DNA of 64,000 bases, from positions 256,001 through 320,000 of the forward strand of contig OZ242260.1 in NCBI GenBank assembly GCA_965207065.1, written 5' to 3'. Shown piece by piece: positions 8,793 through 22,517 of this stretch (position 1 is the stretch's first letter; each line of letters starts with the position of its first letter). The notes below the pieces were generated by a model, which had not been told where the DNA came from, ran no database searches, and saw only the letters and a list, made by a program, of their open reading frames with translations. This DNA comes from a bacterium. GTDB taxonomy: Bacteria; UBA8248. The translations under genes and the position numbers were made by a program.

Positions 8793-10385
8793 TCACTCCA
8801 CCATGTCCATCAAGAGAGCCTGATCCGCCTGGATGTCCGTTTTCGCTCTTTTCCCGATAAATTCATCCATCATCCAGCCGGGAAGTCCCTCAGCGGGACG
8901 TTTCATGCCCAGCATTGAGGATTCAATGGTCTCTCCGCGCCGTATATCCCGTTCTGCAACGATGCTGCGTCGCGCGCTGTTTCGCGCAGAAATTTCCGAC
9001 TCGGCGACTCCGAGCGCGCCGTCGCCCAATACGCTTTCGGCAAGACGAACGTTTTGCACCATCTTTTTCAAATCTTCCGGGTTCATCGAAAAGGAATGTC
9101 CCGAACCGCTCAGGCTTCGGTCCAACGTGTAGTGTTTTTCGATGACCCTTGCGCCCAGCGCAACGCCAAGGGCGGGTATGGCCATTTGTTCATCCGGCTC
9201 CGTATGGTCCGAGAGGCCGACGATGAGGCTGGGATATCTTTCCTTCAAAGTATGGATTCGAAGGAGGTTCGCGTCTTCGTTCTCGGCCGGATAACTCAAG
9301 GTGCAGGCCATGAGGATGAGTTGGCGATTGCCTGTAGCGAAAAAGGTGGCGATAGCCCGCTCAATCTCCTCCACCGTAGAACCGCCGGTCGAAAGAATGA
9401 CGGGCTTGCCGAAACCGGCCACGCACTTGAGCAAGCGGCTGTCGGGAAGATCGCAGGAGGCAATTTTGAAGAGCGGCGCGCCCAAATCATTCAGCATCTC
9501 GGCGCTTTCGAGGTCGAACGGCGTGGAGAACGTGATAACACCCTTCTCACGGCCATGTGTGAAAAGCGCTTCATATTCGGGCTTGCCGAAGCGATCAAGT
9601 TTCCGATAATACTCGATTTGCAGGATCCGCTTTCCCCGCCAGTAGGTCATCGCCCCTTTGCGCGTCAGCCGTTCGGCCTTGTAGGTCTGGAACTTGACCG
9701 CATCCACCCCGGCATCGGCAGCGAGATCGATCATCTCTTTGGCAAGCCCCAGGTCACACATGTGGTTGCAGGCACCTTCGGCAATCAGAAAGGCGGAATG
9801 TCCCGCGCCTATCATTTTGCCTCCGACGGTGATTTCCTTTGAATATGCACTCATCTCCTGTTCCGCCATGGCGAAGTCGAATGCAGTGTGGATGTTGATA
9901 CAATCATCTCGAACGATGGAAGATTGAAGAGGCGGATCCGCCATCAACCCTCTTAAGCTCATGATGCGAAGCGCTCCGTTCCGCTTGCCATGGCGGTCCA
10001 CAGTGCGCAAATCGTCGATCCCGTAGTCTTTGACATATCTGACGAGGGCGTCCAGATCGCTTTTTCTGTTCGGATGATCCGGCTGAATTCCGACGAGGAA
10101 AGAAATTTTCTCACGGCTCAATTTCTCTGCGACGTCCCGGTAGACTTCGAGCAAGGGCGTTTCACCACCCAGCTCTTGGCCACGTAGATGAACCATCGCG
10201 CCGTTTCGTACAGCAATTTCGGCGACCTCCTCCGTATCGGTGGAGACGACGATCTTGTCCACGCTTTTGAATCTTCGTGCGTACCGAATCGCATGCGCCA
10301 CCAAAGGTAATCCGTCGATAACCAACAAATTTTTACCCGCCAGACGACCCGAATGCCGCTTGGCCGGTATGACGGCGACGATCAC
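8793..10385 (-). CDS. Cytidylyltransferase (NeuA-like) fused to an N-acylneuraminate synthase (NeuB family) with SAF domain
   Basis: N-term IPAKRHSGRLAGKN and VVSTD. NeuB motifs IAEGACNH, VKFQTY, STPFD, KIASCD, GLSDHT and IEKHYTLD. C-term KRPAEG (SAF/AFP-like). Confidence 0.88.
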   Translation of the reverse strand: MIVAVIPAKRHSGRLAGKNLLVIDGLPLVAHAIRYARRFKSVDKIVVSTDTEEVAEIAVRNGAMVHLRGQELGGETPLLEVYRDVAEKLSREKISFLVGIQPDHPNRKSDLDALVRYVKDYGIDDLRTVDRHGKRNGALRIMSLRGLMADPPLQSSIVRDDCINIHTAFDFAMAEQEMSAYSKEITVGGKMIGAGHSAFLIAEGACNHMCDLGLAKEMIDLAADAGVDAVKFQTYKAERLTRKGAMTYWRGKRILQIEYYRKLDRFGKPEYEALFTHGREKGVITFSTPFDLESAEMLNDLGAPLFKIASCDLPDSRLLKCVAGFGKPVILSTGGSTVEEIERAIATFFATGNRQLILMACTLSYPAENEDANLLRIHTLKERYPSLIVGLSDHTEPDEQMAIPALGVALGARVIEKHYTLDRSLSGSGHSFSMNPEDLKKMVQNVRLAESVLGDGALGVAESEISARNSARRSIVAERDIRRGETIESSMLGMKRPAEGLPGWMMDEFIGKRAKTDIQADQALLMDMVE

Positions 10386-11677
10386 CTCCCCTCTCCTCTC
10401 GTATTCCCGTTTGAAATCACGGGCATGATTTGTCCCGCCTGCCGAAGCACGATGACTTTCGAATCCGGTCCTCTCGTTTCCAATGCGGCATTGATTGCCG
10501 CCTCTATCGACTCGGCCCAGCCGAATCCCATTCGCTCCGCTTCCTCGTGACCGATATGAGGAGAAACCAATATCCCATTTACTCGTTTGGAGATAATTCT
10601 GCCGATGGCGACCAGCGTATAGGCCAGGAGTTTTTCACGAAATTCACCCGCCTCGACCTTGCGGTAAAGTGTGTCGGGGTCTTTGAACCCATAGCACTCA
10701 AAATGGGGGAATTGCGGAGAGATGCCCTCCCGGCATTCCGCGGCCAGGATGATCACTCCACCATCACGGCAGACGACGTCCGCCGCGCACACGGCCTTGA
10801 TGGCTTGTCGCAGATCGATGTCGGAGGGATAGGCTTCCGCAACGACGACTTCCGCCCTGGCAGGAACCGAAGCACCGTATAGCTTCAGGCATCTTTCACA
10901 GCCCGCCGCATGCGCCGCTTCCATGTCTCCCGCAACGGCGTCAAAGATCCTTTCCTCATCCATCATGATCGTGTTGACGATGAAGCGCAGCCCGGCTCGC
11001 CGAGCGATGCGAACGAACGCTTCCCTCACCTTGTTGTCGAAAATGCCGAGAATTTCGCTCATCTCGTAATCCAGAGCTGCCCAATGGGTCGCCTCTATCG
11101 TGGCCTCGCCGCAAATACCTGGCATCACGCTTTTTGCCCCGCCGGAAAACCCCGCCGTCGCATGGGGGATGATGCTGCCGACGGATATGAGGAGATCCGC
11201 CTTCAGGATTTCCCTGTTCATCAGCACTTCGAAGCCTAACTTGCTCTTTCCCAAAGAAGTCAGCTTTGTGGGGTTTTTCCATTCGTGGTTGAGAATCTCG
11301 AATCGAGCGACCAGATCGTCACCGAACTTGCGCCTTATCTCCTCATCCATCATGGCGCGGTGTGTGCCCAAGCCAATCAGAATACGTACCGAGGAATCAG
11401 AGATGCCCGCCTCGGCGAGTTCCTCCAGGACAATGGGGACCACGCGGTGAAGCGGCGTATGGCGCGTATTGTCGTCGGTGACGATCAGCACCTTCTCCGC
11501 GCCTTTCGAAATCTCCCGGAGAGGGGGAGAGCCGATCGGGTTTCGAATCCGCTCCCTGAGAGCTTCATCGTCAAGACCTATACCTTCAGGCAGGGAGGGG
11601 CCATAGACGCCCATCAACCGCCCATCTCCGACTTCGAAGTCTCCGAACAAATCGTTCGTCAAGGATATTCTGGCCAT
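10382..11677 (-). CDS. larA: Nickel-pincer-dependent lactate racemase/alpha-hydroxyacid epimerase family protein
   Basis: DDNTR, GLGTHR, LNH, PHATAGFSGGAKSVMPG, ATH and QAIKA motifs match LarA catalytic and NPN-binding residues. Substrate unknown. Confidence 0.85.
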   Translation of the reverse strand: MARISLTNDLFGDFEVGDGRLMGVYGPSLPEGIGLDDEALRERIRNPIGSPPLREISKGAEKVLIVTDDNTRHTPLHRVVPIVLEELAEAGISDSSVRILIGLGTHRAMMDEEIRRKFGDDLVARFEILNHEWKNPTKLTSLGKSKLGFEVLMNREILKADLLISVGSIIPHATAGFSGGAKSVMPGICGEATIEATHWAALDYEMSEILGIFDNKVREAFVRIARRAGLRFIVNTIMMDEERIFDAVAGDMEAAHAAGCERCLKLYGASVPARAEVVVAEAYPSDIDLRQAIKAVCAADVVCRDGGVIILAAECREGISPQFPHFECYGFKDPDTLYRKVEAGEFREKLLAYTLVAIGRIISKRVNGILVSPHIGHEEAERMGFGWAESIEAAINAALETRGPDSKVIVLRQAGQIMPVISNGNTRGEGR

Positions 11678-13563
11678 CAGCTCGTCTCCGCCTCATCGTT
11701 TTTCCACAAATCGGAACCGGGGGATGAGAAAATATCCACCCATTCCGCACGCCAATTCTTGCTCCTCCTGTAGTAGCGATGCGTAAACTCGGCGACGGCT
11801 TCTAGCGTTTGGCCGTCCTCCCACCACGAATCGACGTCGGGCCAGATGGCGTTCAGGTGTCTCGCCGCACTCTCGCCGGAGGAATGATGAACGCTCACGC
11901 TTGAGAGTTTATTGAAGTAGGGCTTCGAATAATGTGAAATCCGCCAGGCGTTTTGATGGCCAAAGAAGAGGGTCGGAATGCCCGCCGCCATCGTGAAGGC
12001 CGCCGTCGTCCCCGGGCGATCGAGTACGCAAACCCCGCACCTCGACAGAGCGGGCGAGAGACGACTCGGCATGTATCTCACCAGTTTTCCGCGAAGGATA
12101 TTTATGTCTGGATATCGCGTTTTGATGTAGGCTTCGTCATAACGGTTGTTTCTCCTGCGCATGTACGGCCTGTACCACAAGGCGGAACGGGGCGCGTCGT
12201 CCAGGTGTTCGATAAAACTCGCCTTCTCCCGCATATAGCGCGGTATGTCTTCGGGCAGGCAGTCCGCCGCCAGCCATTTGAGATGGGCAGTGAGTTCGGA
12301 GGTGACCAGAACGATAGTTGAGCCGCGCTTCTTGTTCCGCCTCATTTTCGAAAGAAACGGAGACGCCGCCGGCAGGGCGCTTACCCGATAATCGGATTGA
12401 CGACTCCACCCCCACGATATGAACCGATCGGCTGTCTCATATTCCGTGAGATGATGCCAGGGTGCCGATTTGATGATGCCGTAGTTTCCTCCGTGCTGAT
12501 TGATGACCAGCCTGACAGGACGTTTTTCGATCAGAGCGGCTACGTAAAAATTCGACTGATCGTCATTGCCCAGATGGCCGTAGGCGATTGTGTCCGTCCA
12601 GGGCGCCGTCGCCTTTACCTTCAACAGGGCTTTTTTCTCGTTTTCAAAATAATGCTCCGTGAATACCCTCGGCATCGTCTCCGAAACGAGTGCATCCAGA
12701 ACGCTCAGGAAAACTTCGGCTTCCCCGGCGGCGATGTGTCGTATCGATTGGATTTCTCCGGCCACATCTTCCCTGGTGAGGTGCGCACTTCCCGCTTCAG
12801 GCGTCTTTTGAAACGATCCGGCAGCCTCCCTCCAACGCCTTCTGTTTCGAAACAGCATGCGTAATGATATGTAGGCGGCATCCAGCGGACTCAAACCATG
12901 CACTTTATGGAACTGCACGAAGCCTAAGTTTGAGGACAAAATGCTCGCCCAGCGATACAACTCCATTTTTCTCTGCACTTTTTTGAAAACGGTATAGTTT
13001 TCCGTTGGTTGCTTACCCGGGAGGTGGTCTGAGTAGAAATACAAATCTTCCGGGGCCGGCGCGCCCTCTCGCATTACCCAGCCCCGGGGCTGAAATACGC
13101 GGATAAACCTGCTGAAAATCAGACGGTTCAGCGGATCATCGATCATCATCTGGTTGAAATGATGCGTCGTGATGGATGATAGAGTCTCATCGCGCGGCGC
13201 GAGATATACCAGATGCGGAACTCCGCTCTTGATACGAATCCTGATGCGCAAGAATCGCTCGAATGCGCACATGACCAGATTGACCAGCCAAGGCATCAAC
13301 AATATGCGCCAGTAGCGATTCGAATAAGAACGCCCGTGCCTTTCATTTTGTCGGATGTTTAGCCCAGCAAGATAGAATTCACAAACCTTCTCCAGTCTTC
13401 TGGAGACGAAGTGAACCTCCTCGCCTCGGAGTGGAGGCTCGATTCCATACTTCTTCCACTCCCACTCGAAAAACTGAGCCTCAGGGAGCGACCAGGGACC
13501 CAGATGCTCGGCCTGTCGTTCATCCAGGACGGGATCGATTCTTGTCAGAATAAGTTGATTCAT
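11677..13563 (-). CDS. Putative polysaccharide transferase, LIC12162-like family
   Basis: HLGPW, LN....RHGRSYSNRYWRILLMPWL, NQHGGNYG, FISWGW, YRPY and W.DVDSWW motifs as I recall them for this family. Start at ATG 13563 because the longer ORF overlaps the tRNA. Confidence 0.7.
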   Translation of the reverse strand: MNQLILTRIDPVLDERQAEHLGPWSLPEAQFFEWEWKKYGIEPPLRGEEVHFVSRRLEKVCEFYLAGLNIRQNERHGRSYSNRYWRILLMPWLVNLVMCAFERFLRIRIRIKSGVPHLVYLAPRDETLSSITTHHFNQMMIDDPLNRLIFSRFIRVFQPRGWVMREGAPAPEDLYFYSDHLPGKQPTENYTVFKKVQRKMELYRWASILSSNLGFVQFHKVHGLSPLDAAYISLRMLFRNRRRWREAAGSFQKTPEAGSAHLTREDVAGEIQSIRHIAAGEAEVFLSVLDALVSETMPRVFTEHYFENEKKALLKVKATAPWTDTIAYGHLGNDDQSNFYVAALIEKRPVRLVINQHGGNYGIIKSAPWHHLTEYETADRFISWGWSRQSDYRVSALPAASPFLSKMRRNKKRGSTIVLVTSELTAHLKWLAADCLPEDIPRYMREKASFIEHLDDAPRSALWYRPYMRRRNNRYDEAYIKTRYPDINILRGKLVRYMPSRLSPALSRCGVCVLDRPGTTAAFTMAAGIPTLFFGHQNAWRISHYSKPYFNKLSSVSVHHSSGESAARHLNAIWPDVDSWWEDGQTLEAVAEFTHRYYRRSKNWRAEWVDIFSSPGSDLWKNDEAETS

Positions 13564-13707
13564 GCGTCGGGCGCTTTTCTCACGCCTCACCGCATATGCA
13601 TGAGGCGTGAATGGAGTAACGGCACTGATGGCCGTCCCCCCAAGGCGCGCGTTGTTACACCCTCGCGCCGCTCGACTTGACGGGAAAGAAATCTCGATAT
13701 TCAGGCT

Positions 13708-13785
13708 TGGCGTCCCCAAGGGGATTCGAACCCCTGTTGCCGGCGTGAAAGGCCGGTGTCCTGGGCCAGGCTAGACGATGGGGAC
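13708..13785 (-). tRNA. tRNA-Glu (anticodon TTC)
   Basis: GTCCCCATCGTCTAGCCTGGCCCAGGACACCGGCCTTTCACGCCGGCAACAGGGGTTCGAATCCCCTTGGGGACGCCA: cloverleaf, anticodon arm CCGGC-CTTTCAC-GCCGG, T-loop GTTCGAATC, encoded CCA. Confidence 0.97.
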
Positions 13786-16215: not shown

Positions 16216-17892
16216 TCAAAAATCATCCCCCGAGAATTCAGGCCGCTCCCGTAATATCGCCTTGATGTCCTCTCGCTTGTGTTTGCGCGTGGTGGTTCTG
16301 GGCAACTCCTCCTCGGGCCAGAGGAAAAAACCGGCCACTCTCTTGTAATCCGCAAGGTGCGCGCTCAGGCGCTTGAGTTCCGTATCTGCCAGAGTCGTTC
16401 GCTCTTCGTCTTCTTGCGGCAAATCGGTTTCGGGGTCGAGCACCACGACGGCGAACACCTCCTCGCCACCGCGAGGCGTTTTCCTGCCGATGACGCATAC
16501 ATCCTGGAACCATGCACTCTCGAGAAGCTGCTCCTCTACCTCTTCGGGATAAATGTTTTTGCCCGCCTCGGAGACGATGACGTTCTTGGACCGGCCGCAT
16601 ATCGTGAGATAGCCGTCCGAGTCGATACGGCCGATGTCTCCGGTATGAAACCATCCATCCCGCAAGACCTCCGCCGTGAGATCGGGATTCTCGAAATAGC
16701 CCTGCATCACGTTTGGACCCCGTATCAGTATTTCACCCTCTCCCTCGTCCGCACCCTCTACAGGTACGAGCCTCGCTTCCACCCCCGGAATCGGCGGGCC
16801 GACGGTTCCGATTCTATTTTGCGCTCCCGGCGGAGTCGCATGGGCGACGGGAGAGGTTTCCGTCAAGCCATATCCCTGGACCACCTCGATTCCCAGGATG
16901 AGCAAATCTCGAGCGATTTTGGGGTCGAGCGCGGCCCCTCCGCTAGCGAAATAGCGCAGATTCGGACCAAGATTCTTCTTCACCTGGGAAAACAGCAGAT
17001 GACCGACGCGAATACCCATCGACAGGCATATCCTGGAAATCCCGAAAAGAGTCTTGAAGACGAGTTTTTTCGCTCCGCTCAGTGATTCCACGTTCGACAT
17101 GATCCGCTTGTGGATGAGCCGCGCAAGCGCTGGCACCATCAGGCAGATGGTAATGCCCTCGTTTTGCATGGCCTCGACGAGGAGCCGCGGGTTCAGGGAA
17201 GAAAGGTAATGCACGCGGGCGCCCGCCCCCAGCGGTATCAGGAAACCGCCCGTACTCTCGAACATGTGGTGAAGCGGCAGAACCGAGAGAAAAACGTCAC
17301 CCTCCCTGGCGAGGAATGTCTGGAGAACTGCGCGCACATTGGAAGTGATGTTCCCATGAGAGAGCATCACGCCCTTGGGTGTACCCGTCGTCCCCGATGA
17401 AAACGACACCAGCGCTAGATCGTCCAGACCGCGCTCCGCACCCGGCAGTGCATCCAGCGATACAGCGGAGTCAGGCTCTCTCTCCTCATCGATGCGCAAT
17501 ACTGCGCAGGTCGATTCGAGACCGACCGCAAGCGCTTCGGCACGTTCCTCTTCACGGGAATCCGTCACAAGGCAAACGGGCTTGGCTTTTTCCATAATGT
17601 TCGCGAGTTCACCCTCTTTCAAATTCACGTCCAGAGGCACGAGAACGCCGCCGGCGAGCAGCGCCCCGAAATATCCCACCCCCCATTCGGGTTGATTCGG
17701 CGCCAGCTGTGCGACAAAATCTCCCGGCTTCACGCCCGCATCTATCAACTCGCTCGCCAGGGCGGCTGCTTTTCCGCACAACTCCTTTCTGGTGAGCGTC
17801 ACTCGGCCGCGTCCTTCTACGTCTCCTTCCAAGGCGATCGAATCGGGAAATTTCGCAGTTGTCTCTTTCAGGAGATCGATCAAGGTATCCAT
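16216..17892 (-). CDS. AMP-binding long-chain acyl-CoA synthetase
   Basis: SSGTTGTPKGVMLSH, QGYGLTET, GWFHTGDIG and GRSKNVIV motifs. Confidence 0.88.
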   Translation of the reverse strand: MDTLIDLLKETTAKFPDSIALEGDVEGRGRVTLTRKELCGKAAALASELIDAGVKPGDFVAQLAPNQPEWGVGYFGALLAGGVLVPLDVNLKEGELANIMEKAKPVCLVTDSREEERAEALAVGLESTCAVLRIDEEREPDSAVSLDALPGAERGLDDLALVSFSSGTTGTPKGVMLSHGNITSNVRAVLQTFLAREGDVFLSVLPLHHMFESTGGFLIPLGAGARVHYLSSLNPRLLVEAMQNEGITICLMVPALARLIHKRIMSNVESLSGAKKLVFKTLFGISRICLSMGIRVGHLLFSQVKKNLGPNLRYFASGGAALDPKIARDLLILGIEVVQGYGLTETSPVAHATPPGAQNRIGTVGPPIPGVEARLVPVEGADEGEGEILIRGPNVMQGYFENPDLTAEVLRDGWFHTGDIGRIDSDGYLTICGRSKNVIVSEAGKNIYPEEVEEQLLESAWFQDVCVIGRKTPRGGEEVFAVVVLDPETDLPQEDEERTTLADTELKRLSAHLADYKRVAGFFLWPEEELPRTTTRKHKREDIKAILRERPEFSGDDF

Positions 17893-17978: not shown

Positions 17979-18770
17979 CTAGATCAGCCGCTTTCTGACC
18001 TGCCATGCAGCGAATTCACCCGCGAAAACCAGGGCGATGATCGCCAGCACCAGCACGCCTGATTTTTGCCACTGAAACTGCTTCACGTACAAGAACACGT
18101 AAAACCCCAAGCCCCCCGCCCCGACAAGACCCAGAATCGTGGAATCGCGCAGATTCATCTCGAAACGTATGGCCAGATGTGCAACCATCTGCGGCAATAC
18201 CTGGGGAATGAGGCCGTGTTGAATGATCTGGAGAGAAGATGCGCCCGTGCCCTGCAATGCGAGTAAGGGTTTCGGGTCGGTCGCCTCGATTTCCTCCGCC
18301 ACGAACCGCCCGAGCACGCCGACGGAGTGCACCGCCAGCGCCAATACCCCCGGAAATGGGCCGAGCCCCACGGCGGAGACGAACAACAATGCGAGCAACA
18401 GTAAGGGGATGGAACGGACGAACGCCATGAACGCCTTGATGGGCAGATGCACCCAGACCGGCGTCCAGTTCGACGCCGCGAGCACGCCCAGCGGATAGGC
18501 GAACAAAGCACCCAGAAAAGTACCCGCAATGGTGGTTTGCAGCGTTTCGACAGCCGAGGTCAGTAAAACATCCCAGACCGACCAATCCGGCGGCGTCATC
18601 CGGCCAAAGAAGTGAAACAGTTGTGGAATCCCGCGCCAGAATTGCCCGGGTGAAAACTCAGAACCCTGAAAAGACCAGAATAAGAGTGCGCTAACTGCCA
18701 GGAAGAGGCTGACCTTGCCAGCCATACGGCCAGGTAAAAGCGCTTCTGCTTGCTCTCGTTCCGTTCCCAT
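17979..18770 (-). CDS. phnE: PhnE/PtxC-family ABC permease
   Basis: PPD, VRSIP, VGLGPFPGVLAL and FEMNLRDSTILGLVGAGGLG motifs. Family call only; substrate uncertain. Confidence 0.85.
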   Translation of the reverse strand: MGTEREQAEALLPGRMAGKVSLFLAVSALLFWSFQGSEFSPGQFWRGIPQLFHFFGRMTPPDWSVWDVLLTSAVETLQTTIAGTFLGALFAYPLGVLAASNWTPVWVHLPIKAFMAFVRSIPLLLLALLFVSAVGLGPFPGVLALAVHSVGVLGRFVAEEIEATDPKPLLALQGTGASSLQIIQHGLIPQVLPQMVAHLAIRFEMNLRDSTILGLVGAGGLGFYVFLYVKQFQWQKSGVLVLAIIALVFAGEFAAWQVRKRLI

Positions 18771-19536
18771 TCACGACTCCGTTTGTTCCCATGAACTCGT
18801 AGATTTCACATATCCTATCATTCGAGAGTGAATCCGAAGAACCATCCCACATGATTTTTCCGTTTTTCATCGCCAGGATTCTATCTGCATACTTTCGCGC
18901 AATTTCGGGGAGGTGGAGACTCATCATGAGCGTGAGTTCGTAGGCGTCGCAAACCGACACGAGGAGATCCATGATGTCCTCGGACAATGCGGGGTCCAGG
19001 CTCGATACAGGTTCATCAGCGAGCAGAATTGTCGGCTCCTGCGCCAATGCCCGGGCGATGGCGACGCGCTGCTGTTCCCCGCCGGAGAGCGTGCGGGCGA
19101 AGCGGCGTTGCTTGTCATCGAGATGCACCTCCTGAATTGCCTGTGCGCAGATTTGCAAATCGCGCTGCGAGCAGATTCCCAACATGCTTTTCACTAACGA
19201 CACATAACCGAGCCTTCCGTGGTAGACGTTTTGCCAGACGGTTTCCCGGCCTATCAGGTCGAAATGCTGATGAATCATACCGATATGGCGATGATGGGTT
19301 TTCATCTTTTTGGGATCCTTGATCGGGAAAACATCCCCCATCACGACCACCTTCCCCTTCTGGCAAGGCACATAGCCCTTCAGCATCCGCATGAGGGTCG
19401 TCTTGCCGGAACCACTGTTGCCGACAATAGCCACTCTCTCCCCACGAGAGACCTCGAGTTGATCGACGGAAAGAATCGTCCGCCCCTCCATCTCCACACG
19501 CGCATTTTCGATTTGGATGACCATTTCTTTCGACAT
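18691..19536 (-). CDS. phnC: PhnC-family ABC ATPase
   Basis: [34 protein letters not shown] and SLH motifs. Confidence 0.88.
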
Positions 19537-19540
19537 TTTC

Positions 19541-20464
19541 CTATTCCTTCAAAAAACCATACTTTCGGGCCATATCGGCCACCGGCTTATATCGGTTGTG
19601 GTTGACCCTCACGTAACCATCCGTTCCGTAAAGAGCCCGTATCAAGCTACGATTCGCAGGCCGGTTCATCTTCATCATCGCCGCGATGAATTTTCGCCTG
19701 ATTTCAGGCTCCAACCCTTTGCGCACCACTACGTTGTGGCTGGGAATTCTGGCCGATTGCGCGATGGCGACAACTTGATCGCGCTGATCGGGACGAAGGA
19801 GATTGAGCGCATATTGGCTTACTCCGGCGGCGTTGACGAAACCACCAACCACTGAGTTGACCGCCTGCTGATCCCCGCCTGCGAAATAAACTCTTCGGAA
19901 AAACTTGCCCTCAGGCTTTTCCACTCCCCCGTTTACAAGACCGGCACGAACAAAAATGTCTTGAGGGTACATAAAACCCGAACTCGAAATGGGGTCGACA
20001 TAGGCGATAGTCCTACCCTTCAGATCGGAGATCTTCTTGATGCCGCTGTCCTTGCGAACGAAAATCCTCGAATAGTAGTAAGGTTTTCCGTCGTATATCT
20101 CCCCAAGAACCGCCTCGACTCCCGAATACTTGTTCGCCAGGACATAAGGTAGCGGAGACATAAAGCTCACATCGGCATTTTTCGAAATCATGGCCTCTAC
20201 GGCGGCCGAGTAATTCAAGGTGATGAAATAGCGGACCTTGCGCCCCATCTCTTTTTCCAGAAAATTCATCGCCGGTTTCACGTTGTTGATGAGTTTCTCG
20301 GGATTCTCGAGCGGAATGAACGCAACCCGAAGCTCCCTTTCGGCCGCGCGAACGGGAACCGGAGCGAACAAGAACGTGGAGAAAACGAGGAGAATCGCCA
20401 CTGGCAGAAACAACCCCGGCGCTTTTGTCGATAATACTCGGATGAAACGCATGACTCTGCTCAT
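19541..20464 (-). CDS. phnD: PhnD/PtxB-family ABC substrate-binding protein (atypical)
   Basis: Signal peptide, then NYSAAVEAM, YYYSRIFVRKDSGI..ISDLKG and DPISSSGFMYP. ATG overlaps the upstream TGA. Confidence 0.82.
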   Translation of the reverse strand: MSRVMRFIRVLSTKAPGLFLPVAILLVFSTFLFAPVPVRAAERELRVAFIPLENPEKLINNVKPAMNFLEKEMGRKVRYFITLNYSAAVEAMISKNADVSFMSPLPYVLANKYSGVEAVLGEIYDGKPYYYSRIFVRKDSGIKKISDLKGRTIAYVDPISSSGFMYPQDIFVRAGLVNGGVEKPEGKFFRRVYFAGGDQQAVNSVVGGFVNAAGVSQYALNLLRPDQRDQVVAIAQSARIPSHNVVVRKGLEPEIRRKFIAAMMKMNRPANRSLIRALYGTDGYVRVNHNRYKPVADMARKYGFLKE

Positions 20465-22419
20465 TTTAGTTTGTCCTGGTTTTTCTGATATAGCGCGTGA
20501 TATGCCGCGATTTTGTCCTCGGTCATCTTTGGGTCACCCGCGAGATGCGCCCTCAAGGCCTCATTCAGTTTCTCTTCCATCTTATTGAGAACCGGCATAT
20601 TTTCCTTGTCCTGAACATCCCATTTGTGGGCCTGCACTTCACGAATCACCGTTTTCAACAAGACGGTGATCAACTCTTTTTTCTTTCTCTGCTTCAATCG
20701 CTCATAGGTGGAGAGGAAAAATTTGAACTCCTCCAACTCCGACTCCAGCGTGTAAACTGTATTTTCAATCCCCTGGACGCCATCACCAACGGCTTCGAGG
20801 TAGGCGGTGAGGTCGTCGATGTCCTTTCGTTCCAATCCCAGTTTGAATTGCCTGTTGAACCATTCGTTCACGGCCCGCAGTGTAGGCAGGCTGCCGTCGT
20901 GGAAATACGGGGGCGTGAATTTCGATGAGAGCAGGGTGGGCGTATCCATACCGCCTACGTGAAACAGCCGGCTCGCGCCCGTGGAACCGATGTCATGCCG
21001 CTTGTGGTCCACGAAGTTCGCATTTGGAATGTGACAACTCGCGCAACTCATGCCGCCCATCATCTGGGGGAATTTCCGGTGAAAAATTTTCTCGCCACGC
21101 AACGCCGCCCGGGAAACTTTCTCGAGGTTGAGTCTCCCGCTCTTTTTGAGTTTCGGGTTCGGCAAGAACTCGAACTCGTTCATGTAGGCGATCATGCCGT
21201 CCAAGATCATCGGGTCGGGTTCAGGCCCGTTGAACTCGTTCACGATGACGTTGCGCACGAATTCCCTGAGTGAGGCGAAACGGCCGTTTCTACCGTATGG
21301 GGCAGTGAAGCGAATGCCCCGCAAGTCGGGCGTGTCCAGCGGATCATGAAGACCGTTGTTGGCGTGGCCTGCGAAGAAACTGTTCGACACGTCCATGCCG
21401 CCTTTTTCCCGGGAAAGACCGGGGATGAAAAGTTCGGGATTCGTCACGCCCTTGTTGTGGCAAGTGTTGCAACTCATCCCCAAGGTGCGCGCGGGTTCGC
21501 CGAAAATCTCTGCGCTGTCGAAAGCCATATCCCCAAAAGCGATGAGAAAGGTTTCCGCCTCGTTGACACCGCGCTCCGCCATTCCGAGAATCTGTCTCGG
21601 ACGCGGGAGTTGTTTGTTGATGTTGGAACCCGGCGGCAGGCGCCAAGGTACGTGCGCGGTTTCGGTATATGTTTCGCTCCCCTTGGGTCGGGGCAGGAGC
21701 CTGTGTTCTATTCCGGCCTGAAACTCGGAGAAATTCACATGTATATACCCGCGGATGAATGAGATGCTCTCGCGGATTTTTTCGATATTCATCGGCTTTG
21801 CGCCGATTCCCATCACTCCGGCGGCTCCCATATGGGAACTCGCTTCGAGCCAATGGATTTGCATCTTTTTCCAAGCCTTGGGATCCAGATACGGCAAAGT
21901 CCCGGCGAAAGCCTGGGAGATTCTTCGCGCTTGGCTCAGACGCTTTTTGACCTCGGCTCTGTCCGAGTCCGCCTTGATCGCGTCCAGATGCGAGATTATG
22001 AGCGAGGCGACTCCCCGCGTGGCCAGGGAAAATACCAACCGGCTCCCATTTTTTCGCGCAGCGACCAAATCCGGTTCTTTATCGCCACTCGCCACGGGCT
22101 GAGCAACGCGCTTGGCAATGGCCAACTCTTCCGGGAACTTCTTGGAGCCAGGAGAATTAACTCCATACAGCGCTTCTTCGATATGTTTCAAATCTGACCA
22201 TACCTGTGGCCAGAGCACAGGATTCAGATTCAAGATGAAACTGGCGCGACGATAGCTTTCGGCAACGGGGTGTAATTCCTCAGGAGGGACGATGTGTGCC
22301 GAAGCGGGGTAGGAACTCATCAAGAACAACCCGGTAGCCAGAAGCCACGCCGGTTTCGTCAAAAAGTTTCTCACACGCAGAGCAAGTCTCGCCCCGGGCG
22401 CTTTGATGCTGCATATCAT
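20461..22419 (-). CDS. Exported di-heme cytochrome c (cytochrome c peroxidase/MauG-like C-terminal half) with large extra domains
   Basis: Signal peptide ending ASA. Two CxxCH motifs (21457-21471, 21031-21045). DTPDLRG...APY and DTPTL....PPYFHDG motifs. Confidence 0.8.
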   Translation of the reverse strand: MICSIKAPGARLALRVRNFLTKPAWLLATGLFLMSSYPASAHIVPPEELHPVAESYRRASFILNLNPVLWPQVWSDLKHIEEALYGVNSPGSKKFPEELAIAKRVAQPVASGDKEPDLVAARKNGSRLVFSLATRGVASLIISHLDAIKADSDRAEVKKRLSQARRISQAFAGTLPYLDPKAWKKMQIHWLEASSHMGAAGVMGIGAKPMNIEKIRESISFIRGYIHVNFSEFQAGIEHRLLPRPKGSETYTETAHVPWRLPPGSNINKQLPRPRQILGMAERGVNEAETFLIAFGDMAFDSAEIFGEPARTLGMSCNTCHNKGVTNPELFIPGLSREKGGMDVSNSFFAGHANNGLHDPLDTPDLRGIRFTAPYGRNGRFASLREFVRNVIVNEFNGPEPDPMILDGMIAYMNEFEFLPNPKLKKSGRLNLEKVSRAALRGEKIFHRKFPQMMGGMSCASCHIPNANFVDHKRHDIGSTGASRLFHVGGMDTPTLLSSKFTPPYFHDGSLPTLRAVNEWFNRQFKLGLERKDIDDLTAYLEAVGDGVQGIENTVYTLESELEEFKFFLSTYERLKQRKKKELITVLLKTVIREVQAHKWDVQDKENMPVLNKMEEKLNEALRAHLAGDPKMTEDKIAAYHALYQKNQDKLK

Positions 22420-22454
22420 GATTTCGGTTCCCTATAAAAACCACCAACAAAGCA

Positions 22455-22484
22455 ATTTTATTCGGAAGACAAAAATAAAGTCAA
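22455..22484 (-). promoter_or_regulatory. Sigma70-type promoter for the cytochrome-phnDCE operon
   Basis: TTGACT-N18-TAAAAT on the minus strand in an AT-rich intergenic region, 35 nt upstream of ATG 22419. Confidence 0.6.
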
Positions 22485-22501
22485 GTTATACTGAATATAT
22501 T

Positions 22502-22517
22502 TTTAGACTTGCCTAAA
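22502..22517. promoter_or_regulatory. Palindromic operator candidate TTTAG-N6-CTAAA (DtxR/MntR/SirR-like)
   Basis: TTTAGACTTGCCTAAA lies just upstream of the -35 and resembles the TTAG-N6-CTAA core of DtxR-family boxes. Confidence 0.45.

Follow-up and report, generated by a model that had tools for sequence, protein, structure and literature searches.

Several described systems resemble parts of the locus reported here. The closest sequence relatives of its transporter, in all three parts, belong to PtxABC, PhnCDE and HtxBCDE. In EfeUOB, Fet3-Ftr1 and FtrABCD, uptake by a binding or permease partner follows conversion of the metal by a periplasmic redox enzyme, which in EfeB is a peroxidase. 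MauG and MbnH are exported proteins with two c-type hemes and a match to Pfam CCP_MauG, as is the enzyme of this locus; MbnH belongs to a copper acquisition locus and acts on MbnP. MauG is described as acting on its partner by long-range electron transfer (PMC6405878).

In much of the ocean manganese and iron are in short supply, and the means by which many uncultured bacteria acquire them are not known. The four-gene module analysed here, of which we found no published description, is one whose transporter parts NCBI family models would label a phosphonate ABC transporter. If it is instead a redox-coupled metal importer, metagenome surveys overestimate the potential for phosphonate and phosphite uptake and overlook a trace-metal route.

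Organization of the module

The module occupies positions 17979-22419, on the minus strand, of the window, by which we mean the whole 64,000-nucleotide stretch of DNA that was analysed. The genes follow each other in the order di-heme gene, PhnD/PtxB-like gene, phnC and phnE, with these features:

22502..22517, minus strand: operator-like palindrome TTTAGGCAAGTCTAAA (coding strand), directly upstream of the -35 hexamer
22455..22484, minus strand: predicted sigma-70-like promoter, TTGACT-18 nt-TAAAAT (consensus scan, 10/12 matches)
20461..22419, minus strand: di-heme protein gene (652 aa, exported, two CxxCH)
19541..20464, minus strand: PhnD/PtxB-like periplasmic binding-protein gene (307 aa)
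18691..19536, minus strand: PhnC-like ABC ATPase gene (281 aa)
17979..18770, minus strand: PhnE-type ABC permease gene (263 aa)

The junctions described in a first-pass annotation of this DNA were all confirmed in the minus-strand reading frames: the binding-protein start overlaps the di-heme stop as ATGA, a 4-nt gap separates the binding-protein gene from phnC, and phnE overlaps phnC, by 80 nt when the first ATG is used and similarly in relatives. The annotation had also placed all four genes behind one promoter. A single sigma-70-like promoter was found, as a prediction only, and we assign it to the four genes because the intergenic gaps are 4 nt or less. It sits behind the glnK terminator; promoter and terminator are both kept in 16 close relatives, and the -35 and -10 hexamers are kept across 17 aligned upstream regions. 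The -35 hexamer is a good one, an observation that was counted against a phosphorus system.

Two metatranscriptome libraries of one study contain contigs that show 0-4 differences to pieces of all four genes; one of these pieces crosses the phnD/phnC junction. This is a weak sign that the four-gene set is transcribed; DNA carry-over could give the same contigs.

Conservation and co-inheritance

The module is widespread and spread across many marine and soil phyla. We compared 80 related loci drawn from GTDB species genomes with at least eight phylum labels; the labels include Nitrospinota, Planctomycetota, Verrucomicrobiota, Acidobacteriota and Sumerlaeota, as well as Hydrogenedentota, Lentisphaeria, Oligoflexia and Deltaproteobacteria. 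In 79 of the 80 the gene right after the di-heme gene encodes the binding protein; phnC is present in 76 and phnE in 75, its absences coinciding with contig ends. Within the phylum of the window, 31 of 51 genomes contain the di-heme gene and the same 31 hold an adjacent orthologue of the binding protein with at least 63% identity, while the other 20 have PhnD-like matches of no more than 38% identity, or none. Conservation of the neighbourhood, proposed in the first-pass annotation as a check on its reading, is thus found both as linkage of the di-heme homologues to phnDCE and as co-inheritance in 31 of 31 genomes. The pattern exceeds chance, with a recurrent gene order and with both CxxCH motifs (CNTCH and CASCH) invariant in 76 homologues. 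Among the genes conserved in the module, none encodes an electron donor.

The di-heme enzyme

Judging from its sequence, the 652-aa protein is an exported di-heme c-type enzyme and a distant member of the CCP/MauG superfamily. The two CxxCH motifs and the export signal noted earlier were located within it, and its parts are arranged as follows:

22297..22419, minus strand: signal peptide, residues 1-41, predicted cleavage ...PASA before HIVPPEE
21640..22296, minus strand: mature N-terminal tail H42-IVPPE-E47 and all-helical N-domain (to about residue 260), domain model pLDDT 92.7
20776..21639, minus strand: di-heme core, about residues 261-548, carrying CNTCH and CASCH
21457-21471, minus strand: heme motif CNTCH, residues 317-321
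21031-21045, minus strand: heme motif CASCH, residues 459-463
20464..20763, minus strand: C-terminal four-helix bundle, residues 553-652, with invariant E594, H598 and W600

The signal peptide call rests on the cleavage-site residues compared across 78 loci. Position -1 is Ala in 66 of these, Gly in 9, Ser in 2 and Thr in 1, position -3 is mostly Ala, Val or Ser, and the first mature residue is His in 75 and Asp in the remaining 3. Altogether 1076 homologues of the enzyme were found, called 'cytochrome c peroxidase', 'cytochrome C' or 'hypothetical protein' wherever their sources give a name; among the 120 listed, lengths range from 614 to 682 aa and identities from 49 to 98%.

The match to CCP_MauG (PF03150) reaches 47.7 bits against a gathering threshold of 25.6 and covers residues 442-516 only (profile positions 7-76 of 149), and residues 393-540 align with hydrazine synthase gamma, bacterial CCPs, MauG and BthA. 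The best NCBIfam matches, which are weak, are MbnH and MauG-like models: TIGR04039 (MbnH) gives 47.5 bits against a cut-off of 362.85 and TIGR03791 (MauG) 28.7 against 443.85. Assignment as a canonical bacterial CCP was rejected, NF040606 scoring only 19.7 bits against a cut-off of 150. The best Foldseek matches were YhjA 9qdt (E = 0.022) and BccP 3o5c (E = 0.04), none of them reaching E = 0.001, and the heme regions of the model have low confidence. W520, present in at least 90% of the sequences, aligns with the Met of the 3o5c segment '...AVNTM...', which we take to be the ligand of the electron-transfer heme. Peroxide removal is covered elsewhere in the genome, by three canonical CCP_MauG genes (141-180 bits).

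Structure prediction yielded the N- and C-terminal helical domains anticipated in the first-pass annotation, as an all-helical N-domain and a C-terminal four-helix bundle. The N-domain has no recognisable relative. The bundle superposes on cytochrome b562-type fusion bundles (VIA-align Z 13.6, rmsd 1.9 A over 97 residues), a score that helical bundles commonly give. The imelysin-like domain hinted at earlier was not confirmed, EfeO 7wgu appearing only at Foldseek rank 20 with a probability of 0.47, and the EfeO imelysin, EfeU permease and DyP families have no Pfam match within the operon. The likeness to EfeUOB, Fet3-Ftr1 and FtrABCD is one of proposed logic only, with no sequence relation to this module: the enzyme here carries two c-type hemes and is neither a DyP nor a multicopper oxidase, and the importer is an ATP-driven PhnCE-type ABC transporter, not an Ftr1/EfeU permease. 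The likeness to MauG and MbnH extends to a periplasmic partner encoded next door, in 79 of the 80 loci here, and to a complex with it, which is predicted below. However, the protein is twice as long as MauG or MbnH and has the extra N-terminal helical domain and the C-terminal bundle, and its partner is the binding protein of an ABC transporter, followed by the transporter genes, with no conserved Trp target.

The binding protein and its transporter

The binding protein matches Phosphonate-bd (PF12974) with 193.3 bits; it lies above the cut-off of the TIGR01098 subfamily (182.6 against 112.05) and below that of the PhnD equivalog TIGR03431 (178.4 against 261.1). The permease exceeds the cut-off of the PhnE equivalog TIGR01097 (266.8 against 216.7), the ATPase falls just under that of PhnC TIGR02315 (237.7 against 266.1), and in Pfam the transporter proteins of the operon match only Phosphonate-bd, ABC_tran and BPD_transp_1. 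The closest solved relatives of the binding protein are PtxB (E = 1.3e-27), HtxB, ArrX and AioX, and the oxyanion core of PtxB (Tyr55/Tyr100/Ser-Thr-Ser) is retained as Y85/Y130/S160-162, although S160-S161-S162 reads D-M-S in 13 of 77 sequences. Such family matches would suit an ordinary importer of phosphite, phosphonate or another oxyanion with which a peroxidase travels, serving either H2O2 removal or the oxidation of a reduced P or As oxyanion before uptake. The retained Tyr/Ser core is compatible with a P, As or other oxyanion ligand, and an AhpC/TSA peroxiredoxin gene lies upstream of the module in one related locus (L055:927-1610), with ORFs of the same BLAST cluster in two others (L063 and L067).

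Other residues of the cleft set it apart from PtxB. The His of the STS-H motif (S130, T131, S132 and H160 in Te_PtxB) corresponds to G197 and the capping Y208 to H243, both in 77 of 77 sequences, and the position of Asp22, residue 52, is occupied by L, Y, I, F or Q and never by D. The binding protein thus has neither the complete STS-H phosphite ligand motif, its His being Gly, nor the phosphite-selective cap formed by Tyr208 held by Asp22, where His replaces the Tyr and the Asp is absent. In turn E122, Y124, D157, D198, Q200 and R228 are added invariants relative to PtxB and, together with Y279, are found in 77 of 77 binding proteins. There is no Trp among the 23 invariant columns.

The resulting cleft contains Tyr, Tyr, His and Asp/Glu, together with Arg and a Ser site at a helix end. 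As far as sequence residues go, its Tyr, Tyr, His, Asp/Glu part can be compared with the transferrin ligand set, and FbpABC/transferrin-type proteins are likewise type II binding proteins. FbpA gave no sequence match among the solved structures listed for the binding protein, and we know of no oxidase partner of FbpA. Tyr-rich sites favour trivalent ions by general coordination chemistry, and the Arg and the helix-end Ser site could hold a synergistic anion. To our knowledge, no PhnD-family protein that binds a metal cation has been solved or published.

The absence of C-P lyase and phosphonatase genes, first noted for the window, holds genome-wide: PhnJ is absent across the whole 4.48-Mb genome (96% complete) and nothing in it reaches the cut-off for a phosphonatase. 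No such family was detected in a scan of 10 ORFs lying between 10.4 and 28.1 kb of the window, nor among the neighbours that were scanned. The view of the transporter as a 'repurposed' Phn-type system fits these data, the His and capping Tyr of PtxB being gone in a genome with neither pathway, while the suggestion of a reduced P, As or Se oxyanion as the substrate is without support. On the basis of the missing PhnJ and phosphonatase and of the altered cleft, our best explanation takes the module not to be a phosphonate/phosphite system. It further differs from PtxABC, PhnCDE and HtxBCDE in the lack of C-P lyase and phosphonatase genes in the genome, in its metal-type neighbour regulators and in its obligatory enzyme partner.

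Neighbouring regulators, channels and operators

A gene of the DtxR/MntR family adjoins the module in 27 of the 80 loci and a gene for a Phenol_MetA_deg outer-membrane barrel in 19. At least one of the two kinds of gene, regulator or outer-membrane channel, is found in 40 loci, all outside the clade of the window, and in Opitutales loci an OprB porin gene lies 3' of phnE. The window genome has only two DtxR-family genes in 4.48 Mb, and chance adjacency is therefore unlikely. PhoB- or ArsR-type genes are not recurrent among the neighbour clusters.

Twenty-nine regulators were compared at the metal-ligand positions of DtxR. The position of Met10 is D in 18, N in 8 and Q in 3, that of Cys102 is E in 26 and C in 3, and those of Glu105 and His106 are E and H, respectively, in all 29. 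The ligands of the manganese sensor MntR at these positions are given as Asp8, Glu99, Glu102 and His103 (PMC4805248). By this comparison 26 of the 29 regulators carry manganese-type ligands and the 3 with Cys at the Cys102 position are iron-like, so that manganese and iron both fit. One module-adjacent regulator has 8pvt, 5zr4 and ScaR as its closest solved relatives, ahead of IdeR and DtxR. An OprB-type domain is reported for MnoP, a high-affinity Mn2+ channel (PMC4827864). The D/N-E-E-H repressors and the OprB and other barrels found beside the module in many phyla recall MntR-controlled uptake (MntH, MntABC, MnoP), but the transporter itself is neither Nramp nor of cluster A-I (ZnuA/MntC), and a redox enzyme is included. 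The neighbours in other bacteria suggest uptake of manganese (or iron) rather than phosphorus, and of the substrates listed in the first-pass annotation, Fe and Mn are those favoured by the repressor and channel genes.

In the window and its approximately 24 closest relatives the module is flanked by amtB-glnK and an AMP-binding enzyme, with no regulator or channel gene next to it. The regulator is unlinked in the window genome, in contrast to MntR-controlled systems, and the metal link in this genome therefore rests on that unlinked regulator, which is 50% identical to a module-adjacent one, and on the putative operator. The window palindrome is kept in 16 close relatives, in some as the perfect TTTAGGCATGCCTAAA, and is the only match in the 4.48-Mb genome at three or fewer mismatches. 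Palindromes occur at or near the promoters in many loci, and distant loci have related repeats upstream of -35 or downstream of -10. The location of the window palindrome upstream of -35 is not the classic repressor position. The genome already encodes two ZnuA-family metal binding proteins elsewhere, which weighs against the metal reading, and has no Nramp.

Predicted complex of the enzyme and the binding protein

Residues 42-652 of the di-heme enzyme, with two hemes, were modelled together with residues 41-307 of the binding protein. The runs gave ipSAE values of 0.80, 0.79 and 0.79, compared with 0.00 for the best of three controls, and had at least 91% of contacts in common, with a partner pLDDT of at least 87. 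The mark used is reached by 58 of 80 solved complexes and by 2 of 110 mismatched pairs, rates that apply only roughly here because we supplied our own alignments and included a riding ligand.

The enzyme is thus predicted to dock on the binding protein. Its interface consists of residues 42-48, 184-208 (including W190) and 596-605 (including W600), with 596-597, 600 and 605 as the contributing bundle residues. The interface of the binding protein is made of cleft residues 52-54, 85, 122, 124, 157-159, 192-200, 228, 243 and 279, and the model puts the invariant mature N-terminal His tail of the enzyme inside this cleft. The tail, with its His and Glu47, would be suited as an arm for metal hand-off. 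Given the predicted docking, the target of the enzyme may be the bound cargo, or the binding protein, instead of the free substrate 'before import' of the first-pass annotation.

Interpretation and alternatives

We propose, with about even confidence, that the four genes form an uptake module for manganese (less likely iron) in which the enzyme performs a redox step on the cargo of the binding protein. Gene order, conservation, co-inheritance, the altered cleft residues and the regulator and channel neighbours are observed and the complex is modelled; which metal is carried, that a redox step takes place and in which direction, and which protein binds the operator of the window are what we infer. 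The metal would cross the outer membrane, in many other phyla by way of a dedicated channel whose gene lies within the module. The di-heme enzyme would pair up with the PtxB-like binding protein, its His42 tail entering the cleft, and the di-heme core, H2O2-fed like its CCP/MauG relatives, would perform the redox step on the bound cargo, most likely an oxidation that makes Mn(III) from Mn(II) (or Fe(III) from Fe(II)). This trivalent ion would be trapped by the Tyr, His, Asp and Glu of the cleft, while the retained Ser-rich site would hold an oxyanion, and the loaded binding protein would pass it to the PhnC/PhnE-type ABC importer. An MntR-like regulator would repress expression when the metal is plentiful.

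A more specific version is tentative and on the unlikely side: the enzyme would dock on a binding protein derived from a phosphite binder, with its N-terminal His arm in the cleft, and Mn(II) would be oxidized to Mn(III) by long-range electron transfer through the interface tryptophans, in an enzyme-loaded importer whose transported species is Mn(III) held by tyrosines and a synergistic oxyanion. It would be a bacterial counterpart of the ceruloplasmin-transferrin pair and the first Mn(III) uptake route, and its binding protein would be the first to depend on a redox enzyme in every round of loading. More generally, a heme enzyme docking with a His in the cleft would represent a new loading mode for ABC transporters and a new job for the MauG/CCP superfamily.

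The main rival is a maturation enzyme like MauG and MbnH, which would oxidize a cleft residue, for example a Tyr, a single time and so create the site that binds the metal or another ligand, after which the modified binding protein would work alone with PhnCE. The only relatives with a known protein partner do modify that partner (MauG pre-methylamine dehydrogenase, MbnH MbnP), and adjacency and co-inheritance fit this scenario equally well. In the model the cleft is turned towards the enzyme and the interface includes the invariant W190 and W600, the cleft residues Tyr85, 124, 130 and 279 and His243 are invariant, and the best NCBIfam matches, weak as they are, point to MbnH and MauG-like models. 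Those scores are, however, far under the cut-offs, the modelled interface involves the N-domain and the C-terminal bundle and not the heme core, and the invariant columns of the binding protein include no Trp, which is the residue that MauG and MbnH modify. A one-time modification would also leave the conserved N-terminal His tail in the cleft unexplained, and we consider it unlikely.

Reductive mobilisation, in which electrons would be delivered to Mn(III) or Fe(III) complexes or oxides and the divalent ion handed over via the His/Glu tail, shares its regulator, channel and complex evidence with the reading that we prefer, and the invariant Asp, Glu and His of the cleft would also suit a divalent ion. 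We nevertheless regard it as improbable, considering that the cleft is Tyr-rich, favouring trivalent ions, and that the module is without a conserved electron donor gene. The CCP/MauG relatives, moreover, are described as peroxide-driven oxidants (PMC6405878).

The ordinary oxyanion importer with a travelling peroxidase, its family scores notwithstanding, appears quite doubtful in a genome without C-P lyase or phosphonatase that encodes three canonical CCPs elsewhere, given the replacement of the PtxB His and capping Tyr in every sequence, the DtxR/MntR-type neighbour regulators in place of recurrent PhoB or ArsR, the strict co-inheritance and the predicted complex.

Results and discussion

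Conservation of a four-gene module

The di-heme protein gene lies head to tail with a binding-protein gene, phnC and phnE, all four on the minus strand.

Genes of the module (window coordinates)
20461-22419, minus strand: di-heme protein gene; 652 aa; signal peptide; CNTCH at residues 317-321 and CASCH at 459-463
19541-20464, minus strand: binding-protein gene; 307 aa; start overlaps the di-heme stop as ATGA; Phosphonate-bd match of 193 bits
18691-19536, minus strand: ATPase gene (phnC); 281 aa; 4-nt gap after the binding-protein gene; ABC_tran match
17979-18770, minus strand: permease gene (phnE); 263 aa; overlaps the ATPase gene; PhnE equivalog match of 266.8 bits against a cut-off of 216.7

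The arrangement is as the first-pass annotation had described it from the sequence, including the ORFs, the ATGA overlap, the 4-nt gap, the phnE overlap and the two heme c motifs. We found 1076 homologues of the di-heme protein, with lengths of 614-682 aa and identities of no less than 49% among the 120 listed; a scan with one genome per species gave 94 relatives, from which 80 loci were kept. A PhnD-like gene is located directly downstream of the di-heme gene in 79 of the 80 loci, with PhnC next in 76 and PhnE in 75, and four of the PhnC/PhnE misses occur where the contig breaks off inside the binding-protein gene or shortly beyond it (L029, L040, L046, L061). The sole locus without a binding-protein match, L078, has a DtxR-like gene after the di-heme gene and its contig ends ~700 nt further on. 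Within the phylum of the window the di-heme gene is present in 31 of 51 genomes, and within the genus in 22 of 22 (the window's own genome not counted). An adjacent binding-protein orthologue with 63-100% identity occurs in exactly the same 31 phylum genomes, and the other 20 contain distant PhnD-like matches (≤38%) or none. The linkage in 79/80 loci and the co-occurrence in 31/31 phylum genomes therefore speak against the case that the first-pass annotation had named as contrary to its idea of a cytochrome serving an importer, namely cytochrome homologues unlinked to phnDCE. Long ORFs in two loci (L066, L070) that might be taken for a natural fusion of the enzyme and the binding protein turn out to be false frames in GC-rich sequence, with the two genes encoded separately.

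The di-heme protein

Profile comparisons place the di-heme protein in the CCP/MauG superfamily only as a remote member. Its Pfam CCP_MauG match (47.7 bits) is confined to residues 442-516, its scores against the NCBIfam MbnH, MauG and di-heme CCP models are far under their cut-offs, and a profile of 16 di-heme homologues reaches hydrazine synthase gamma, bacterial CCPs, MauG and BthA over residues 393-540 only. The AlphaFold model (76 sequences, pLDDT 75.7) has three parts: an N-domain made up entirely of helices and modelled with confidence (about residues 50-230), a heme core that is poorly modelled, as expected for a model containing no hemes, and a C-terminal four-helix bundle (residues 553-652). 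Foldseek with the whole model returned CCPs and MauG as weak matches (best E 0.022). The C-terminal bundle resembles cytochrome b562-type bundles with Z 13.6 (rmsd 1.9 Å over 97 residues), and we draw no function from this likeness, as a Z of about 13 is generic for helical bundles.

Folded alone, the N-domain reached a pLDDT of 92.7, and no clear relative was present among the 48,161 chains compared (best Z 7.1, to generic helical bundles); the fold is not thereby shown to be new. An imelysin- or EfeO-like N-domain was a candidate that we dropped: EfeO (7wgu) appears only at rank 20 of the whole-model Foldseek search, with a probability of 0.47, and the best 50 structural matches of the N-domain alone include no imelysin. 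Three canonical CCP_MauG genes (141-180 bits) are found elsewhere in the genome, so plain peroxide removal does not need the di-heme protein. Two of these are in tandem (G000:C1:2228170-2229772, G000 being the window's own genome) and the third is at 2826645.

The binding protein and the question of phosphorus

The module does not resemble a phosphorus system. PhnJ is missing from the genome (one contig, 96% complete), which also has no phosphonatase above the cut-off; it encodes only one strong Phosphonate-bd protein, and inspection by eye revealed no Pho box at the -35 hexamer of the module promoter. The phosphite ligands of Te_PtxB, as given in PMC5700983, are Y55, Y100, S130-T131-S132, H160, the capping Y208 and D22. 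When these are placed on the binding protein via sequence alignment to 5lv1, Y55, Y100 and S130-T131-S132 are retained as Y85, Y130 and S160-S161-S162, and H160 becomes G197, the capping Y208 becomes H243 and D22 becomes L52. G196-G197-D198-x-Q200 and H243 are invariant among the 77 module-linked binding proteins, and so are N54, E90, D98, E122, Y124, D157, R228 and Y279. The oxyanion corner is preserved, and the remaining cleft has been remodelled, with side chains of Tyr, His, Asp, Glu and Arg.

A sub-clade of 13 of the 77 binding proteins (e.g. in L028, L030, L047, L055 and L063), from Planctomycetota and Verrucomicrobiota loci, has Q in place of P158, D-M in place of S160-S161, and Leu at 244. 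The binding proteins of this D-M-S sub-clade may use a different co-ligand.

A predicted complex between the enzyme and the binding protein

Enzyme residues 42-652 with two hemes were modelled together with residues 41-307 of the binding protein, each protein entering as its own alignment (numbering follows the precursors; the signal peptide of the enzyme is 1-41). The complex scored ipSAE 0.80, 0.79 and 0.79, compared to 0.00 in the highest-scoring of the three controls, and the runs had at least 91% of contacts in common with a partner pLDDT of at least 87. Of 80 solved complexes, 58 come up to this mark, as do 2 of 110 mismatched pairs; both counts hold only roughly here. The prediction supports, rather than shows, that the two proteins bind each other; no solved complex of similar build is known to us, and a memorised score is therefore improbable.

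In the model, the enzyme contributes its mature N-terminus (42-48), residues 184-208 with the invariant W190, and residues 596-605 with the invariant H598-K-W600 motif, and the binding protein contributes its cleft (52-54, 83-86, 122, 124, 157-159, 192-200, 228, 243, 279). Enzyme Glu47 is invariant. With cleavage at the predicted signal-peptidase site, the mature protein would start with His in 75 of 78 loci and with Asp in three, and position -1 of that site is occupied by A, G, S or T in every one of the 78 loci. An N-terminal His offers both an amine and an imidazole to a metal, as in 'histidine brace' sites, and by this analogy the N-terminus of the enzyme could be a site of a similar kind. 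In a comparison of the N-terminal tail with the D-M-S cleft variant (13/77), there is an apparent enrichment of Asn at position 7 of the tail; the enrichment tracks phylogeny and is for that reason not taken as evidence.

Metal-type neighbours

All ORFs of the 80 loci were clustered, representatives were checked against Pfam, and HMMs were then built for the recurrent accessory genes. There are two such genes, located immediately 5' of the di-heme gene or following phnE: a DtxR/MntR-family repressor, in some cases with a FeoA domain (27/80 loci), and a Phenol_MetA_deg outer-membrane barrel (19/80); one or both are present in 40 of the 80 loci. The HMMs found neither gene beside the module in the window or in its ~24 close relatives. 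The window's 4.48-Mb genome has just two DtxR-family genes, so that adjacency of the repressor to the module is probably far above chance.

PMC4805248 contrasts the iron-sensing DtxR set Met10/Cys102/Glu105/His106 with the manganese-sensing MntR set Asp8/Glu99/Glu102/His103. At the DtxR Met10 position, the 29 repressors have D (18), N (8) or Q (3), at the Cys102 position E (26) or C (3), and at the Glu105 and His106 positions E and H, respectively, in all 29. Among solved structures, 8pvt, 5zr4 and ScaR, three manganese-responsive regulators, are closest to one of the repressors, ahead of IdeR and DtxR. An OprB porin gene follows phnE in Opitutales loci; the manganese channel MnoP has an OprB-type domain (PMC4827864) and Anabaena OprB-domain porins influence manganese tolerance (PMC9705863). 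The neighbours of the module, as classified from sequence, point to metal, and the ligand sets of the regulators favour manganese over iron as its probable identity; three of the 29 regulators are iron-like.

An exported-looking AhpC/TSA peroxiredoxin gene (L055:927-1610) is located a few hundred bases 5' of the di-heme gene in its locus, and further members of its BLAST cluster are located ~200 bases (L063:6154-6684) and some 2.4 kb (L067:3974-4486) upstream of theirs. This neighbour may tie the module to peroxide chemistry.

A possible mechanism and its alternatives

The simplest account that uses every part of the module is a metal-uptake line. The metal would pass an outer-membrane channel, where such a gene is present, and would then be handled by the complex of enzyme and binding protein and by the ABC importer, with an MntR-like sensor repressing the whole line. 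The enzyme would oxidise the bound divalent ion to a trivalent one, which the Tyr-rich cleft would hold much more tightly, with an oxyanion at the Ser site ('oxidative trapping'). Such trapping would resemble EfeB/EfeO as well as ceruloplasmin with transferrin. The relatives of the enzyme are peroxide-driven oxidants and MauG acts at long range (PMC6405878), and both points favour oxidation of the bound divalent ion.

The alternative we consider best placed, although unlikely, is that the di-heme enzyme modifies the binding protein once, in the manner of MauG or MbnH. It is less probable still that the redox step of the enzyme runs in the reverse, reductive direction, and we give equally little weight to an importer for oxyanions that has a peroxidase or an oxyanion oxidase as its accessory enzyme. 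We rate the module, with metal uptake as the preferred reading, as related to redox-coupled metal uptake or to partner-directed di-heme enzymes.

No published description of the module was found in the literature searched, supplementary files (possibly with neighbourhood tables) being outside that search. The passages of PMC6405878 that were searched have 0 occurrences each of 'phosphonate' and 'ABC transporter', and the protein Atlas has only generic 'cytochrome c peroxidase family' names. The parts of the module are of known kinds; their combination, the altered cleft and the predicted docking of the tail in the cleft are not described in the literature searched.

Promoter, expression and flanking genes

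On the 5' side, the module is preceded by amtB and glnK, a hairpin terminator, and an AT-rich stretch with TTGACT-18-TAAAAT. Many loci have palindromes at or after the -10 hexamer of their promoter regions, of three types by eye: TTTTGAG-N-CTCAAAA, TGTAGCCTAGGCTACA and TTAAC-N5-GTTAA. The palindrome of the window, TTTAGGCA(A/T)G(T/C)CTAAA (22502-22517), is just 5' of the -35 hexamer and, like the promoter hexamers, is common to 16 close relatives. The genome has no second copy at up to 3 mismatches, and the regulon therefore cannot be read from it. Related repeats are located 5' of -35 in L012, L021, L023 and L037, and 3' of -10 in L019, L020, L022 and L024; in L020, L022 and L024 the repressor gene is first in the operon. 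The genome of the window encodes an unlinked MntR-like regulator (G000:C1, about 2,376,954-2,377,622) that shares 50% identity with its L020 counterpart and carries the diagnostic pair Asp and Glu, and we infer that it binds the window palindrome; a site 5' of -35 is not the classic repressor position.

Two metatranscriptome libraries, both from one study, contain contigs that agree with parts of each of the four genes at 0-4 differences; one such part crosses the phnD/phnC junction. These matches hint that the module is transcribed in nature, DNA carry-over being another possible source. Many operon bins are without cover in the two RNA libraries, which is no evidence of silence.

On the 3' side, an AMP-binding (acyl/aryl-CoA ligase-like) enzyme gene (16216-17892, minus strand) begins 86 nt after phnE. 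The same gene cluster is found 3' of phnE in 24 loci (within L001-L026), all Nitrospinota-like and none from other phyla, and M20 peptidase and EamA transporter genes come after it in many of the 24. Further along, a 680-aa ORF (11677-13719, minus strand) without a Pfam match at E ≤ 1e-4 is directly downstream of a LarA-like (lactate racemase family) gene (10382-11677), with a one-base overlap. The G+C content of the window steps near 30 kb from about 0.53-0.56 (1-30000) to 0.60-0.67 (30001-64000), and housekeeping families account for the matches of the ORFs scanned on either side: thiolase, E1-like enzyme, UbiD, UvrD and nucleotidyl transferase on the high-GC side and asparagine synthase on the low-GC side.
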